The translations under genes and the position numbers were made by a program. DNA of 64,000 nucleotides from assembly GCF_024700885.2 (NCBI RefSeq), contig NZ_CP117016.1; one strand, 5' to 3'. The stretch is from Escherichia coli. GTDB taxonomy: Bacteria > Pseudomonadota > Gammaproteobacteria > Enterobacterales > Enterobacteriaceae. A model generated the notes under the pieces. That model was not told the DNA's origin, did not search any database, and saw only the letters and a list, made by a program, of their open reading frames with translations. This document shows, piece by piece, positions 1,920-46,605 of this stretch (the first letter of the stretch is position 1; each line of letters opens with the position of its first letter).

Positions 1920-1975
1920 ACGTAGCAGGGATCCACGTCCTTCAGGGCGTGGAGGATGTCAACATATCAGTATGG
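1780..1975 (+). ncRNA. Predicted omega-RNA (reRNA) scaffold plus flank-derived guide for TnpB (inferred, not demonstrated)
   Basis: By analogy with characterised TnpB systems, where the guide RNA derives from the tnpB 3' end and right end; the RE hairpin at 1932-1953 lies in this span. Confidence 0.25.
1932..1953. repeat. IS200/IS605 right-end subterminal imperfect palindrome (TCCACGTCC-TTCA-GGGCGTGGA)
   Basis: 9-bp stem with one T-G mismatch at the same relative position as in the left-end hairpin, same TTCA loop. Confidence 0.6.
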
Positions 1976-2053
1976 TTTCCCCCCAGGCACTGGAAGCCAG
2001 ACGTAAGGTCATCAAAGAGACGCTCCTTAGCTGGCTTTTGGTTGATTCTTCAT

Positions 2054-2728
2054 CTACCGCGCACGAATAAAACTGCCATCCGGCTGGCGGGTAAACAGGA
2101 CCTGTTGATTATTCCCCGTATCAATGGTTAAGCCCGTCACCACGCCGCTGGCGTTCTGGCGGATTTTCACCATCTGCCCGTTTTGCAAATTACTCAGCGG
2201 CTTACCCGCGCCTTCTACCTGCGCCATTGCATAGACATCGGTAGCGGGCAGTCCGTGGTCGCGGAACAGCTGCGCCATCGTTTTACCGGGTTCGACACGA
2301 TAGGAGCGCCATTGATTATCAATTCCGCTATCTGGCTGGAATGGTTGCGTTTGGGTGGTTTGCGGCTGCTCTTCTGGCTGGCCTTCCTGTATAGGTTCTG
2401 GAGCGAGCGGAGCCACCTGATCAGGATCATTTTGTGGCGTGACTAATTGCGCCCGCAGCTGTTCTTCTGTCGGTGGTTGTGATTGCGACTGAATATCTAA
2501 CTGTGCTTCACGCGTCACCACCGGCGCGTTGGGCGTATCATCAGATGGAAGCAGAAATCCGACCACCAATACAATGGCGGCAATAATGATCCCCCGACGA
2601 TGCATCTGCGGCAGCGGGTCCATGAAGCGAAAATTGTCCGGCGCGTGCCAGACTTTCTCCAGGGTTGGTTTTAGTTCAAAGCGCCCGGGCATGGTTTCCT
2701 CCTGCTCCGCGTCTTGTTCCTCAATCAT
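2054..2728 (-). CDS. ytfB: YtfB-like OapA-domain membrane protein (cell-division associated)
   Basis: 224-aa ORF with N-terminal TM segment, Pro/Gln-rich linker and C-terminal OapA-like domain; position next to fklB matches the E. coli gene order. Confidence 0.8.
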
Positions 2729-2909
2729 AGCCTATGAATATGCTAACGCTATGATGTCCGTGGTAAACCCGCCTTTATTATATTCATACGGGATATTGCT
2801 ATTGTTTCTTTTTCCCCGGGATTTGTCATCATTCCCGCGACAAAGTTTTACCCAAAGAAGTGTGGCTGATATGCTGCCCGCTACTTTATACCCTAAGAAA
2901 GGAAATACG

Positions 2910-3530
2910 ATGACCACCCCAACTTTTGACACCATCGAAGCGCAAGCAAGCTACGGCATTGGTTTGCAGGTAGGGCAACAACTGAGTGAATCTGGCCTGG
3001 AAGGGCTGCTGCCAGAAGCACTGGTTGCAGGCATTGCCGATGCGCTGGAAGGCAAACATCCGGCTGTTCCGGTTGATGTGGTGCACCGCGCGCTGCGTGA
3101 AATCCACGAACGCGCCGATGCCGTTCGTCGTCAGCGTTTCCAGGCGATGGCTGCTGAAGGTGTGAAATACCTGGAAGAAAACGCCAAAAAAGAAGGTGTA
3201 AATAGCACCGAATCTGGCCTGCAATTCCGCGTGATCAACCAGGGCGAAGGCGCAATTCCGGCACGTACCGACCGCGTTCGTGTTCATTACACCGGAAAAC
3301 TGATCGACGGCACCGTGTTTGACAGCTCCGTCGCTCGCGGCGAGCCCGCTGAATTCCCGGTTAACGGCGTGATCCCTGGCTGGATTGAAGCACTGACTCT
3401 GATGCCGGTAGGTTCTAAATGGGAACTGACTATCCCGCAGGAACTGGCATATGGCGAGCGTGGCGCAGGCGCGTCCATCCCTCCGTTCAGCACCCTGGTG
3501 TTTGAAGTCGAACTGCTGGAAATCCTCTAA
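2910..3530 (+). CDS. fklB: FKBP-type peptidyl-prolyl cis-trans isomerase FklB
   Basis: Start chosen at internal ATG ([20 protein letters not shown]...) 127 codons into the 2529..3530 ORF, giving the expected 206 aa; purine-rich RBS upstream. Confidence 0.9.
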
Positions 3531-3838
3531 GCAGCGCATTCTGTTCCCCTCGAGCCAGAGGGGAGCAGACATTCAGCAATAAACCCTTCAGTTTGCCAAA
3601 CGGCGCTATTTTGTGTTGCAAAGACCCCGTAAGCGTGTATTTTTGTGAGCTGTTTCGCGTTATCACCGTGATATGACACTCACTTTAAACATAAAATTAA
3701 CATTAGATCTAAATCTTAGTATTCATCCCGCGTATTGTTACCTAATATCGATGAGTCCCGATACAGATTCGTCGTATCATAGATTGACTAAAGGCCGTAG
3801 AGCCTGAACAACACAGACAGGTACAGGAAGAAAAAAAC

Positions 3839-5251
3839 ATGGTAGATCAGGTAAAAGTCGTTGCCGATGATCAGGCTCCGGCTGAACAGTCGCTACGGCG
3901 CAATCTCACAAACCGACATATTCAGCTTATTGCCATTGGCGGTGCCATTGGTACGGGGTTGTTTATGGGGTCCGGCAAAACGATTAGCCTTGCCGGGCCG
4001 TCGATCATTTTCGTTTATATGATCATCGGTTTTATGCTCTTTTTCGTGATGCGGGCAATGGGGGAATTGCTGCTTTCGAATCTGGAATACAAATCTTTTA
4101 GTGACTTCGCTTCCGATTTACTCGGGCCGTGGGCAGGATATTTCACCGGCTGGACTTACTGGTTCTGCTGGGTTGTAACCGGTATGGCAGACGTGGTGGC
4201 GATCACGGCTTATGCTCAGTTCTGGTTCCCCGAGCTCTCCGACTGGGTCGCCTCGCTGGCGGTGATAGTGCTGCTGCTGACGCTCAACCTCGCCACCGTG
4301 AAAATGTTCGGTGAGATGGAGTTCTGGTTTGCGATGATCAAAATCGTCGCCATTGTGTCGCTGATTGTCGTCGGCCTGGTCATGGTGGCGATGCACTTTC
4401 AGTCACCGACCGGTGTGGAAGCGTCATTCGCGCATTTGTGGAATGATGGCGGCTGGTTCCCGAAAGGTTTAAGTGGCTTCTTTGCCGGATTCCAGATAGC
4501 GGTTTTCGCTTTCGTAGGGATTGAGCTGGTAGGTACAACAGCTGCGGAAACCAAAGATCCAGAGAAATCACTGCCACGCGCGATTAACTCCATTCCGATC
4601 CGTATCATTATGTTCTACGTCTTCGCGCTGATTGTGATTATGTCCGTGACGCCGTGGAGTTCGGTAGTCCCGGAGAAAAGCCCGTTCGTTGAACTGTTCG
4701 TGTTGGTAGGTTTGCCTGCGGCTGCCAGCGTGATCAACTTTGTGGTGCTGACCTCTGCGGCGTCTTCCGCTAACAGCGGTGTCTTCTCTACCAGCCGTAT
4801 GCTGTTTGGTCTGGCGCAGGAAGGTGTGGCACCGAAAGCGTTCGCTAAACTCTCTAAGCGCGCAGTACCCGCGAAAGGGCTGACCTTCTCTTGTATCTGT
4901 CTGCTCGGCGGCGTGGTGATGTTGTATGTGAATCCCAGCGTGATTGGCGCGTTCACGATGATTACAACCGTTTCCGCGATTCTGTTTATGTTCGTCTGGA
5001 CGATTATCCTTTGCTCGTACCTGGTGTATCGCAAACAGCGTCCGCACCTGCATGAGAAATCAATCTACAAGATGCCGCTCGGCAAGCTGATGTGCTGGGT
5101 ATGTATGGCATTCTTTGTGTTCGTGGTCGTGCTGCTGACACTGGAAGATGATACCCGCCAGGCGCTGCTGGTTACCCCGCTGTGGTTTATCGCTCTGGGG
5201 CTGGGCTGGTTGTTTATTGGTAAGAAGCGGGCTGCTGAACTGCGGAAATAA
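3839..5251 (+). CDS. cycA: D-serine/D-alanine/glycine APC-family transporter CycA
   Basis: 470-aa polytopic membrane ORF recognised as CycA. Confidence 0.95.
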   Translation: MVDQVKVVADDQAPAEQSLRRNLTNRHIQLIAIGGAIGTGLFMGSGKTISLAGPSIIFVYMIIGFMLFFVMRAMGELLLSNLEYKSFSDFASDLLGPWAGYFTGWTYWFCWVVTGMADVVAITAYAQFWFPELSDWVASLAVIVLLLTLNLATVKMFGEMEFWFAMIKIVAIVSLIVVGLVMVAMHFQSPTGVEASFAHLWNDGGWFPKGLSGFFAGFQIAVFAFVGIELVGTTAAETKDPEKSLPRAINSIPIRIIMFYVFALIVIMSVTPWSSVVPEKSPFVELFVLVGLPAAASVINFVVLTSAASSANSGVFSTSRMLFGLAQEGVAPKAFAKLSKRAVPAKGLTFSCICLLGGVVMLYVNPSVIGAFTMITTVSAILFMFVWTIILCSYLVYRKQRPHLHEKSIYKMPLGKLMCWVCMAFFVFVVVLLTLEDDTRQALLVTPLWFIALGLGWLFIGKKRAAELRK

Positions 5252-42267: not shown

Positions 42268-44964
42268 ATGTTTAAAGAAATTTTTACCCGGTTCATTCGC
42301 CATTTACCTTCCCGTCTGGTTCATCGCGATCCATTGCCTGGCGCGCAGCAGACAGTGAATACGGCGGTCCCGCCGTCCTTAAGTGCGCATTGCCTGAAAA
42401 TGGCGGTGATGCCCGAAGAAGAATTGTGGAAAACGTTCGACACCCATCCGGAAGGATTAAATCAGGCGGAAGTGGAATCTGCCCGCGAACAACATGGTGA
42501 AAATAAATTACCCGCACAACAACCGTCGCCGTGGTGGGTACATTTATGGGTCTGCTATCGCAACCCCTTTAATATTTTACTCACCATTCTCGGCGCTATT
42601 TCTTACGCCACGGAAGATTTATTTGCCGCGGGCGTTATCGCGCTAATGGTCGCTATTTCTACGTTGCTGAACTTTATTCAGGAAGCACGTTCCACTAAAG
42701 CGGCAGATGCCCTGAAAGCGATGGTCAGCAATACTGCGACGGTGCTGCGCGTAATTAACGACAAAGGCGAAAATGGCTGGCTGGAGATCCCGATCGACCA
42801 GCTGGTGCCCGGCGATATTATAAAACTGGCGGCAGGGGATATGATCCCGGCAGATTTACGTATCTTGCAGGCGCGGGATCTGTTCGTCGCTCAGGCGTCG
42901 TTAACCGGTGAGTCTCTGCCCGTGGAAAAAGCCGCTACCACTCGCCAGCCGGAGCACAGCAATCCGCTGGAGTGCGACACGCTGTGTTTTATGGGCACCA
43001 CCGTGGTGAGCGGCACGGCACAAGCAATGGTGATTGCTACAGGTGCCAACACCTGGTTTGGTCAACTGGCGGGGCGTGTTAGTGAGCAGGAAAGCGAGCC
43101 GAATGCCTTTCAGCAAGGGATCAGCCGCGTCAGTATGCTGCTGATTCGCTTTATGCTGGTGATGGCTCCGGTGGTGTTGCTTATCAACGGTTACACCAAA
43201 GGTGACTGGTGGGAAGCGGCACTGTTTGCGCTTTCGGTCGCGGTAGGCTTAACGCCAGAAATGTTGCCGATGATTGTTACCTCGACGCTGGCGCGCGGCG
43301 CAGTAAAGCTGTCGAAACAGAAAGTGATCGTCAAACATCTGGATGCCATTCAGAACTTTGGCGCAATGGATATTCTGTGCACTGATAAAACCGGCACCCT
43401 GACACAGGATAAAATTGTGCTGGAGAATCATACCGATATCTCCGGTAAAACCAGCGAACGCGTGCTGCATAGCGCGTGGTTGAACAGTCATTACCAGACC
43501 GGACTTAAAAACCTGCTTGATACCGCGGTGCTCGAAGGTACGGATGAAGAGTCAGCGCGTTCGCTGGCCAGCCGTTGGCAAAAAATTGATGAGATTCCGT
43601 TTGATTTCGAGCGTCGCCGGATGTCGGTGGTAGTGGCAGAAAATACCGAACACCATCAGCTGGTTTGCAAAGGCGCATTGCAGGAAATCCTCAATGTGTG
43701 TTCGCAAGTGCGTCACAATGGCGAGATTGTACCGCTCGATGACACCATGCTACGTAAGATTAAGCGGGTTACTGATACGCTGAATCGTCAGGGGCTGCGC
43801 GTGGTTGCGGTTGCGACGAAATACCTGCCAGCGCGTGAAGGAGATTACCAGCGAGCGGATGAATCCGACCTGATCCTCGAAGGATATATTGCTTTCCTTG
43901 ATCCGCCAAAAGAGACAACTGCTCCGGCACTGAAGGCATTAAAATCGAGTGGAATTACCGTAAAAATCCTTACTGGCGACAGTGAGTTAGTTGCAGCGAA
44001 AGTGTGCCATGAAGTGGGGCTGGACGCGGGAGAGGTGGTCATTGGTAGTGATATTGAAACGCTATCTGACGACGAACTGGCAAATCTCGCACAGCGCACC
44101 ACGCTGTTTGCTCGCCTGACGCCGATGCATAAAGAACGCATTGTGACCTTACTGAAGCGCGAAGGGCATGTGGTTGGCTTTATGGGCGATGGTATTAATG
44201 ATGCGCCCGCCTTACGTGCTGCGGATATCGGCATTTCTGTGGACGGCGCGGTAGATATTGCCCGTGAAGCGGCTGATATCATCCTGCTGGAAAAAAGCCT
44301 GATGGTGCTGGAAGAGGGGGTTATTGAGGGACGTCGCACTTTCGCCAACATGCTGAAATACATCAAAATGACGGCGAGCTCTAACTTCGGTAATGTGTTC
44401 AGCGTGCTGGTGGCGAGTGCTTTCTTGCCCTTCCTGCCGATGTTGCCGTTACACTTGCTTATTCAGAACCTGCTGTACGATGTGTCACAGGTGGCGATCC
44501 CGTTTGATAACGTCGACGACGAGCAAATTCAAAAGCCGCAGCGTTGGAATCCGGCGGATCTGGGGCGCTTTATGATCTTCTTCGGACCGATCAGCTCGAT
44601 CTTCGATATTCTGACGTTTTGCCTGATGTGGTGGGTATTCCATGCCAACACGCCGGAAACGCAAACGCTGTTCCAGTCGGGCTGGTTTGTGGTGGGCTTA
44701 CTGTCGCAAACGCTGATTGTGCATATGATCCGCACCCGTCGTGTACCGTTTATTCAGAGCTGTGCATCGTGGCCGTTAATGATCATGACCGTGATCGTGA
44801 TGATTGTCGGGATCGCATTGCCGTTTTCACCGCTGGCCAGTTATCTGCAGCTGCAGGCGCTGCCGTTAAGCTATTTCCCGTGGCTGGTTGCGATTCTGGC
44901 AGGGTATATGACGTTAACCCAGTTGGTGAAAGGGTTCTATAGCCGTCGTTACGGCTGGCAGTAA
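42268..44964 (+). CDS. mgtA: Mg2+-importing P-type ATPase
   Basis: 898-aa ORF with DKTGTLT phosphorylation motif and GDGINDAPAL motif. Confidence 0.95.
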   Translation: MFKEIFTRFIRHLPSRLVHRDPLPGAQQTVNTAVPPSLSAHCLKMAVMPEEELWKTFDTHPEGLNQAEVESAREQHGENKLPAQQPSPWWVHLWVCYRNPFNILLTILGAISYATEDLFAAGVIALMVAISTLLNFIQEARSTKAADALKAMVSNTATVLRVINDKGENGWLEIPIDQLVPGDIIKLAAGDMIPADLRILQARDLFVAQASLTGESLPVEKAATTRQPEHSNPLECDTLCFMGTTVVSGTAQAMVIATGANTWFGQLAGRVSEQESEPNAFQQGISRVSMLLIRFMLVMAPVVLLINGYTKGDWWEAALFALSVAVGLTPEMLPMIVTSTLARGAVKLSKQKVIVKHLDAIQNFGAMDILCTDKTGTLTQDKIVLENHTDISGKTSERVLHSAWLNSHYQTGLKNLLDTAVLEGTDEESARSLASRWQKIDEIPFDFERRRMSVVVAENTEHHQLVCKGALQEILNVCSQVRHNGEIVPLDDTMLRKIKRVTDTLNRQGLRVVAVATKYLPAREGDYQRADESDLILEGYIAFLDPPKETTAPALKALKSSGITVKILTGDSELVAAKVCHEVGLDAGEVVIGSDIETLSDDELANLAQRTTLFARLTPMHKERIVTLLKREGHVVGFMGDGINDAPALRAADIGISVDGAVDIAREAADIILLEKSLMVLEEGVIEGRRTFANMLKYIKMTASSNFGNVFSVLVASAFLPFLPMLPLHLLIQNLLYDVSQVAIPFDNVDDEQIQKPQRWNPADLGRFMIFFGPISSIFDILTFCLMWWVFHANTPETQTLFQSGWFVVGLLSQTLIVHMIRTRRVPFIQSCASWPLMIMTVIVMIVGIALPFSPLASYLQLQALPLSYFPWLVAILAGYMTLTQLVKGFYSRRYGWQ

Positions 44965-45019
44965 AGAATAAACTGGGCATGGTGGCCCGGATTCAGATTG
45001 CAGACAAAGTGAGCTTTGT

Positions 45020-45039
45020 TCATGCCGGATGCGGCGTAA
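45020..45039. repeat. Left half of a REP unit interrupted by the IS insertion
   Basis: ...GCCGGATGCGGCGTAA directly abuts the IS left inverted repeat; the rest of the REP (ACGCC...ATCCGGCCTACA) resumes after the IS right end. Confidence 0.55.
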
Positions 45040-45090
45040 TGAACTGCACCCCAAATGTTGGACATAATCTGACATCTGAAGGTGCAGTTT

Positions 45091-45612
45091 ATGAAACATT
45101 CATTTGAAGTAAAACTTGCCGCTGTAAATCATTACCTGGCTGGTCATGCAGGCATCATTTCTACGGCAAAACTCTTTCAACTTTCTCACACCAGCCTCTC
45201 ACACTGGATTAATCTTTTTCTTCTTCACGGTCCTCGGGCACTGGATTGCAGACACAAGCGTAGCTATTCTCCTGAAGATAAACTTTGCGTGGTTCTTTAT
45301 GCTCTCGGGCATTCTGAGTCTCTACCCCGGGTAGCTGCCCGGTTTAATATTCCCAGCCACAACACGGTTAAAAACTGGATAAAAGGCTACCGCAAATCTG
45401 GTAATGAGGCCTTTATCAGGCGCAGGAAGGAGAAAAGCATGACCCGTTCTGATGATACCCATGAAAACGAGGCAAACATGACGCCGGAAGAGATGAAGAA
45501 TGAGCTGCGTTATCTTCGCGCAGAAAATGCATATCTGAAAGCCATGCAGGAGCATCTCCTGGAAAAAAAGCGCCAGGAGCTGGAGAAAAAACGAAAGTCA
45601 TCCGGAGCCTGA
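45091..45612 (+). CDS. insJ: IS3-family transposase OrfA (InsJ-like, helix-turn-helix)
   Basis: ATG at 45091 with AAGGTG RBS; protein recognised as IS150 InsJ-like from memory; ends downstream of the slippery heptamer. Confidence 0.8.
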   Translation: MKHSFEVKLAAVNHYLAGHAGIISTAKLFQLSHTSLSHWINLFLLHGPRALDCRHKRSYSPEDKLCVVLYALGHSESLPRVAARFNIPSHNTVKNWIKGYRKSGNEAFIRRRKEKSMTRSDDTHENEANMTPEEMKNELRYLRAENAYLKAMQEHLLEKKRQELEKKRKSSGA

Positions 45613-45716
45613 GGTGCGGACACTGCCAGCCTGACCTGTTAAAGGCTGCAGGGCTGGCCAGAAGCACGCTGTACTACCAGCTGTCACTGCAGAAGGCTAA
45701 GGACAAGTATGCTGAT

Positions 45717-46471
<755 letters not shown>

Positions 46472-46600
46472 GTAAACGCCCAATCCGGCCTACAAATTCA
46501 ATAAATTGCAGGAATCACATAGGCCTGATAAGCGTAGCGCATCGGGCGATTTTGCTTTTGTCATCAGACTTAATCCGGGCATGATAGCCCGGATTTCCGT
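46472..46600. repeat. Remainder of the interrupted REP plus further REP-like units
   Basis: ACGCCCAATCCGGCCTACA... and GCCTGATAAGCGTAGCGCATC... between the IS and ridA. Confidence 0.5.
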
Positions 46601-46605
46601 CAAGA

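Follow-up and report, generated by a model that had tools for sequence, protein, structure and literature searches.

Escherichia coli has a single lysine tRNA, with the anticodon UUU, and A_AAA_AAG is among the most shift-prone motifs in this bacterium. The frameshift signal of E. coli dnaX has a three-part layout that is also found in the insertion sequences IS911 and IS1397, namely an SD-like sequence about 10-11 nt upstream, the heptamer A_AAA_AAG and a downstream structure. Frameshifting in dnaX, unlike that in IS1397, shortens the product, and the stem-loop there is stronger and follows after 6 nt. IS911, whose stimulators are described in PMC4066793, differs from IS1397 in having a branched structure and a GGAG that also serves orfB initiation. 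Neither of these two signals is homologous to that of IS1397.

Information on the signal of IS1397 itself comes from Sharma et al. 2014 (NAR 42:7210, PMC4066793), where the element forms the frameshift cluster A_AAA_AAG_5. These authors ranked A_AAA_AAG in the top three of the -1 motifs whose efficiency was measured in E. coli, found A_AAA_AAG or A_AAA_AAA in 72% of IS1/IS3-family heptamers, and reported that SD-like sequences and downstream structures raise the frameshift efficiency of A_AAA_AAG, which is also established knowledge. In their supplement, a hairpin is scored in 100% of 59 IS1397 sequences (hairpin of 38 nt, spacer of 3 nt, first stem of 4 bp), as is an SD sequence, the latter in Table S8, and -1 frameshifting in IS1397 is graded as one that "can be safely inferred", not as demonstrated (PMC4066793). 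The frameshift signal of the related IS150 InsJ/InsK pair was reported by Vogele et al. 1991, as cited in PMC4066793. Here we describe how an additional copy of IS1397 compares with these systems, and where its signal lies relative to that of IS150.

The element, its ends and its insertion site

The initial annotation of the stretch of E. coli DNA analysed here (64,000 nucleotides, referred to as the window) had recognized an IS3-family element, and this assignment could be carried further. Judged by its sequence, the element at 45040-46471 (1432 bp) is IS1397, of the IS150 group. Over 1432-1433 bp it shows 100% identity to copies present in numerous complete E. coli genomes; RefSeq names these copies "IS3-like element IS1397 family transposase" and adds the remark "programmed frameshift", and the identification was made by comparison with these RefSeq-labelled copies. 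A copy of IS1397 covering at least 80% of the element is present in 1707 of 5426 genomes, versus 3485 genomes with any match; about half of the matching E. coli contain partial matches only. The features of the copy are collected in Table 1. As in other IS3-family elements, the two ORFs overlap, the -1 frame being that of orfB, and OrfB contains a DDE (rve) domain; the element has 25-nt inverted repeats of the form TGAACTG...CAGTTCA (that is, 5'-TG...CA-3') and, on both sides, a short target-site duplication, here of 4 bp, within the 3-4 bp of the family.

Table 1. Features of the IS1397 copy and of its putative frameshift region (window coordinates)
Feature	Coordinates	Strand	Basis or remarks
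Left target-site duplication GTAA	45036..45039	+	In the loop of a REP/PU palindrome
Left terminal inverted repeat (TGAACTGCACCCCAAATGTTGGACA)	45040..45064	+	Inverted repeat; boundary set by the empty site
orfA	45091..45612	+	ATG at 45091; 173 aa; HTH domains and coiled region; zero frame; Pfam HTH_28
orfB frame	45504..46439	+	-1 relative to orfA; open throughout; preceding stop at 45501-45503
SD-like GGAG, candidate upstream stimulator	45549..45552	+	11 nt upstream of the heptamer
Slippery heptamer A_AAA_AAG	45564..45570	+	Phase and open -1 frame; invariant in sampled copies
38-nt hairpin, candidate downstream stimulator	45574..45611	+	Minimum free energy folds; starts 3 nt after the heptamer
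Second in-frame A6 run, G_AAA_AAA_C	45586..45591	+	orfA reads GAG AAA AAA CGA; inside the 38-nt hairpin
Right terminal inverted repeat (ends ...GGGGTTCAGTTCA)	46447..46471	+	Inverted repeat; boundary set by the empty site
Right target-site duplication GTAA	46472..46475	+	Sequence and empty site

The copy lies between mgtA (42268-44964) and ridA (minus strand, from about 46606), where it interrupts the REP palindrome GCCGGATGCGGC-GTAA-ACGCCCAATCCGGC, whose halves are found in the flanks at 45024-45039 and 46472-46489. Such a palindrome is the reported insertion target of IS1397 (PMC1525189). Rejoining the flanks with a single GTAA produced a 300-bp sequence with a counterpart of 100% identity in the mgtA-ridA interval of other E. 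coli, and the uninterrupted site occurs also in strains that carry IS1397 elsewhere. The existence of this empty site fixes the boundaries of the element, proves the 4-bp duplication and makes the insertion polymorphic; the insertion at the mgtA-ridA REP is a recent one. Because the target-site duplication and the inverted repeats are intact, the site is empty in other strains and identical copies sit at different loci, this copy of IS1397 looks active.

Two observations concern the surroundings of the element and the fate of other copies. In the REP-containing mgtA-ridA spacer, adjoining the insertion sequence on its right, positions 46481-46526 (+) show a sub-threshold Rfam match to the sRNA model ES036 (CssrF), which scores 30.5 bits (E 0.0013) where the gathering score is 37.6. 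A decayed copy of IS1397 (locus L038, about 96% identity) was found in E. coli SCPM-O-B-8794 (NZ_JAATUR010000049.1, 1950-4294). It has an internal deletion of 193 bp, equivalent to window positions 45508-45700, that removes the whole frameshift window, and an insertion of about 1.37 kb inside orfB.

The heptamer, the predicted fused product and the flanking elements

The A_AAA_AAG heptamer (45564-45570, + strand) lies in the X_XXY_YYZ phase of orfA, whose frame reads GAA AAA AAG CGC at 45562-45573 and, more extensively, ...CAG GAG CAT CTC CTG GAA AAA AAG CGC CAG GAG CTG GAG AAA AAA CGA AAG TCA TCC GGA GCC TGA. It is the sole X_XXY_YYZ heptamer in the whole zero frame of orfA, as found by a script scan, and is located 40 nt before the orfA stop codon (TGA, 45610-45612), in keeping with the initial annotation, which had placed it in frame near the 3' end of orfA. 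The range given there (45564-45594) holds for its first seven positions; the remainder takes in the second A6 run, which is not a proper heptamer. The two ORFs overlap by 106 nt. Stop codons in the -1 frame between the heptamer and the DDE domain had been named beforehand as the finding that would count against the signal. Since this frame is open from 45504 to 46439, none is found there, and the earlier statement that orfB is open immediately downstream stands.

It could be argued that the heptamer is a chance run of adenines, with orfA and orfB translated separately, or that the copy is inert. Indeed, AAAAAAG is common in the window, with 31 occurrences on both strands versus 15.9 expected from shuffles, as a chance run would have it. 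However, this frequency (about 2.4e-4 per position) leads to an expectation of about 0.01 in-phase matches over the roughly 35 codon positions of the overlap, and in-phase heptamers recur across relatives of the element (see below). Separate translation is further opposed by the absence of ATG, GTG or TTG codons in the orfB frame before 45717, and inertness by the marks of recent transposition borne by the element. Considering also that the fused protein is collinear with family profiles, as described next, an absence of recoding appears extremely unlikely.

The protein predicted from a -1 slip on the heptamer, OrfAB, corresponds to join(45091..45570, 45570..46439) and has 449 aa. It reads ...AMQEHLLEKK-APGAGEKTKVIRSLR... 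across the junction (...LLEKK-APGAGEK...), with the predicted junction peptide LLEKKAPGAGEK. It contains the Pfam domains HTH_28, HTH_21, rve and rve_2, and matches the NCBIfam profile transpos_IS3 in one stretch over its entire length (profile positions 1-369 of 369) with 385 bits, for a cutoff of 160. An alignment with IS150 InsJK had been proposed as a check: OrfAB is 42% identical to the K-12 IS150 InsJ-InsK fusion over 453 residues, through the junction (E 9e-124). The exact sequence of OrfAB is public as WP_260834445.1, named IS1397 family transposase, and that of the orfA protein is present on more than 1000 contigs. The fusion route put forward in the initial annotation is thus matched by a -1 slip product that is collinear with the IS3 transposase profile and occurs verbatim in RefSeq. 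The DDE triad is intact, with D295 at 45972-74, D355 at 46152-54 and E391 at 46260-62, and 35 residues between D355 and E391. This triad, the inverted repeats, the target-site duplication and the polymorphic insertion site back the description of the transposase as potentially functional.

Both sides of the heptamer carry candidate stimulators. The rules used by Sharma et al. 2014 call for an SD-like sequence 6-17 nt before the motif and for a hairpin that starts 4-10 nt after it with a G-C pair followed by three further pairs, and a stability of at least 7.6 kcal/mol (PMC4066793). In the window copy, the GGAG at 45549-52 lies within the first range, and the hairpin starts at nt +4 with C-G, A-U, G-C and G-C pairs and amounts to 12.4 kcal/mol. 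This 38-nt hairpin, obtained from an independent fold, reproduces the published IS1397 hairpin exactly (PMC4066793). It consists of CAGG/CCUG, a 2x2 AG/AG internal loop and CUGGA/UCCGG, with the orfA stop codon in its 3' arm, and its folding energy (-12.4 kcal/mol; z = -3.1 from 1000 dinucleotide shuffles) places it among the top 4% when all 38-nt windows of the insertion sequence are ranked; per nt it exceeds the local average by 0.13 kcal/mol. It is moderately stable, and the 3-nt spacer is below the usual 5-9 nt. The initial annotation had proposed a search for a downstream stem-loop or pseudoknot; the stem-loop is this hairpin, and no complementarity of at least 5 bp was found between its loop and the next 80 nt. 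Likewise, no Rfam frameshift element was matched in 44900-46650 at E<=1, the sole match there being the unrelated sub-threshold sRNA model mentioned above.

Variation was assessed from polymorphism within IS1397 only. The heptamer is unchanged in all 11 other IS1397 copies compared. In the hairpin, the common variant G45604A converts a G-U into an A-U pair, while A45575T, a rarer variant found in one copy, breaks a pair. A polymorphism that spares the heptamer, together with the pair kept by G45604A, lends weak support to the signal at best.

The main shift might instead occur at the second A run, G_AAA_AAA_C (45585-45591), leading to ...LLEKKRQELEKK-TKVIRS... and leaving ...EKKRQELEKKTK as the junction peptide. 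This run is in the overlap and in frame, the resulting fusion would be of equal length, the A_AAA tetramer is weakly shift-prone (PMC4066793), and one relative, L062, has only G_AAA_AAA sites of this type. However, the run at 45586-45591 does not conform to X_XXY_YYZ in the orfA phase, and A_AA.A is the weakest active tetramer (PMC4066793). Moreover, it is buried in the hairpin, has no structure downstream, and the GGAG at 45576-45579 is only about 5 nt upstream. A main shift at this position is hence very unlikely, and the run would be a minor alternative slip site at most.

With a phased heptamer, an open -1 frame, a collinear fusion and two flanking elements, the heptamer is very probably the programmed -1 ribosomal frameshift site of IS1397 from which OrfAB is made; we infer the slippage itself, its efficiency and its stimulation by the GGAG and the hairpin. 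Briefly, most ribosomes translating orfA would read through the heptamer and stop at 45610-45612, producing OrfA, a small DNA-binding regulator. A fraction would pause with tRNA-Lys on AAA in the P site (45565-67) and on AAG in the A site (45568-70), both tRNAs would slip one base back to AAA-AAA, and decoding would resume at GCG (45570-72). The product would be the 449-aa OrfAB, in which the helix-turn-helix domains of OrfA are joined to the DDE catalytic domain. The slip would probably be enhanced by the GGAG 11 nt upstream, through pairing with 16S rRNA, and by the 38-nt hairpin 3 nt downstream.

The same junction would result if RNA polymerase, on the A7 run (45563-45569), inserted an additional A and so brought orfA and orfB into a single frame of the mRNA, and the length of this run speaks for such an event. 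Every join within the run yields an identical protein, and its LLEKKAPGAGEK junction is also the one that an mRNA lengthened by a single A encodes, so that transcriptional and ribosomal slippage are indistinguishable from the protein sequence. In E. coli, however, efficient transcriptional slippage needs about nine or more A or T residues, and seven give little. The run is also in the exact ribosomal phase, and the SD-like sequence and the hairpin are spaced around it as in ribosomal signals; transcriptional slippage would require neither of these two elements. Although some IS3-family elements use this mechanism according to PMC6211511, we regard it as highly improbable here and retain ribosomal frameshifting at the heptamer as the preferred reading.

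The region contains other potential structures. The segment 45547-45579 can be written as CAGGAG-CAU-CUCCUG-GAAAAAAAGCG-CCAGGAG, in which CUCCUG(G) has two possible pairing partners. Pairing with CAGGAG forms an upstream hairpin at 45547-61 (-6.6 kcal/mol), and pairing of 45556-62 with CCAGGAG at 45573-79 (-10.2 kcal/mol) places the heptamer in the loop and competes with the 38-nt hairpin. Both alternatives were given no role because a translating ribosome must melt them. A stronger hairpin is found at 45623-45661, with a 7-bp core GCCAGCC/GGCUGGC within UGCCAGCCUG/CAGGGCUGGCCA; the fold of 45618-45668 amounts to -18.8 kcal/mol. Since about 55 nt separate the heptamer from this downstream hairpin, it is beyond reach for a classical stimulator.

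Taken against the published record, the window copy matches cluster A_AAA_AAG_5 in its heptamer, SD-like sequence, 38-nt hairpin and REP target, with no substantive difference; it represents one more copy, at the mgtA-ridA REP. The IS1397 frameshift signal is intact in it and already catalogued.

The junction in RefSeq and in protein databases

A discrepancy of one residue became apparent when the predicted junction was compared with public records. Among the RefSeq IS1397 transposase records examined, 107 of 124 have Pro at position 161, whereas any join at 45563-45570 yields Ala161, the product expected from tandem slippage (codon 45570-45572). The Pro was traced to join(45091..45571, 45571..46439), set 1 nt beyond the heptamer in DNA that does not differ from that of the window, so that the junction reads KK-P-PGAG (KKPPGAGEK) instead of KK-A-PGAG. 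The possibility that the two residues reflect an AAAAAAC variant of the heptamer was rejected, because the DNA is identical and the join alone differs (45571 versus 45570 or earlier). P161 is an annotation convention and no sequence variant. The RefSeq join nevertheless lies within 1 nt of the heptamer, while the commonest conceptual translation differs by one residue from the expected tandem-slippage product.

Two metagenome or assembly proteins (P0176 and P0204; 75-91% identity) had the appearance of natural in-frame IS1397 fusions (...LLEKSARSWRKTKVIQ...) and were rejected as such. Both A runs are one A short, and downstream P0176 degenerates into frameshifted sequence. They most likely represent homopolymer sequencing errors rather than real variants; errors of this kind in the two runs produce spurious "fused" transposases in protein databases.

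Position of the signal in IS150, IS1397 and other relatives

When one genome was scanned for each species, 80 loci with 48-58% OrfB identity were retrieved, from Bacillus to Pseudomonas. In about 50 of the 80, from Firmicutes to Proteobacteria, orfB is in the -1 frame and A_AAA_AAG or A_AAA_AAA occurs in phase within the overlap. The switch takes place, in IS150 and about 45 relatives, at a conserved (M)ENAYLKK motif, which is followed, 6-7 nt after the heptamer, by a covarying 10-bp stem (GCCUUAGYUC...GARCUAAGGC). All 40 of the sequences aligned retain this stem, and compensatory changes are seen in 4 of 9 pairs.

IS150 and IS1397 share the A_AAA_AAG heptamer, the logic of the -1 fusion and the order of domains, on top of the 42% identity of their fusions. 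Their signals, in contrast, differ. That of IS150 consists of the heptamer at YLKK, a spacer of 6 nt and a 48-nt hairpin containing the 10-bp stem GCCUUAGCUC/GAGCUAAGGC, and an SD is absent, whereas IS1397 has a different, shorter hairpin and an SD-like GGAG, and lacks the GCCUUAGYUC...GARCUAAGGC stem. At the YLKK position IS1397 reads ENAYLKA (TAT CTG AAA GCC), that is, without the heptamer of the IS150 type, and a gap-free alignment of the fusions of IS1397, IS150 and 10 relatives locates the IS1397 switch 9 codons (27 nt) downstream. The 3' arm of the IS1397 hairpin coincides in part with the location of the ancestral 3' arm, while the 5' arm, the heptamer and the GGAG, the latter at the same 11-nt spacing, occupy new positions. 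On these comparisons, IS1397 is predicted to work like IS150 without sharing an IS150-type signal, and this displacement appears to be undescribed.

All these observations could be integrated by assuming that the IS1397 lineage relocated the whole module, a reading towards which we lean. The YLKK site and the long-range GCCUUAG/CUAAGGC stem would have been lost, and a GGAG, an A_AAA_AAG and a 5' arm would have arisen 24-27 nt downstream, while the fusion stayed collinear and the 3' arm remained near its old position. A tandem 24-nt duplication was considered as the cause of the displaced site and rejected, because the fused proteins are collinear and of equal length. Plasmid blastn, a search of 5.8 billion proteins and an exhaustive search of representatives recovered no relatives between 97% and about 55% identity; the top matches of the protein search were all at least 98% identical.

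Several Pseudomonas relatives depart from the common arrangement. In P. endophytica (L062, 489-571), the YLKK heptamer is lost (CTA AAG GAG) and only in-frame G_AAA_AAA runs are present, including one where IS1397 has its heptamer; this relative might be an intermediate of the relocation. The canonical YLKK heptamer is also lost, again as CTA AAG GAG, in P. saliphila (L074, 2429-2526), with no obvious slippery site there. In L002, L003, L005, L008 (Pseudomonas asuensis), L042, L046 (P. oryzihabitans / P. rhizoryzae), orfA and orfB form one continuous, fused ORF of 460-478 aa (YLKQARSLGS...) that involves no frameshift, and the P. asuensis copies, at least, have the IS1397-like end sequence CCCCAAATGTTGGACATAAT. 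These are natural, constitutively fused transposases of the same subgroup.

If true, the relocation would constitute a clean natural case in which a recoding signal has turned over while the overlap window stayed fixed; the shifted position relative to IS150 is otherwise a modest evolutionary curiosity. The displaced signal and the one-residue artefact of the RefSeq join are minor additions to what was known of IS1397, of little significance beyond annotation. For the strain that harbors it, this copy of IS1397 has an intact predicted route to its transposase and is probably mobile, and its mobility is relevant to genome stability at REP sequences.
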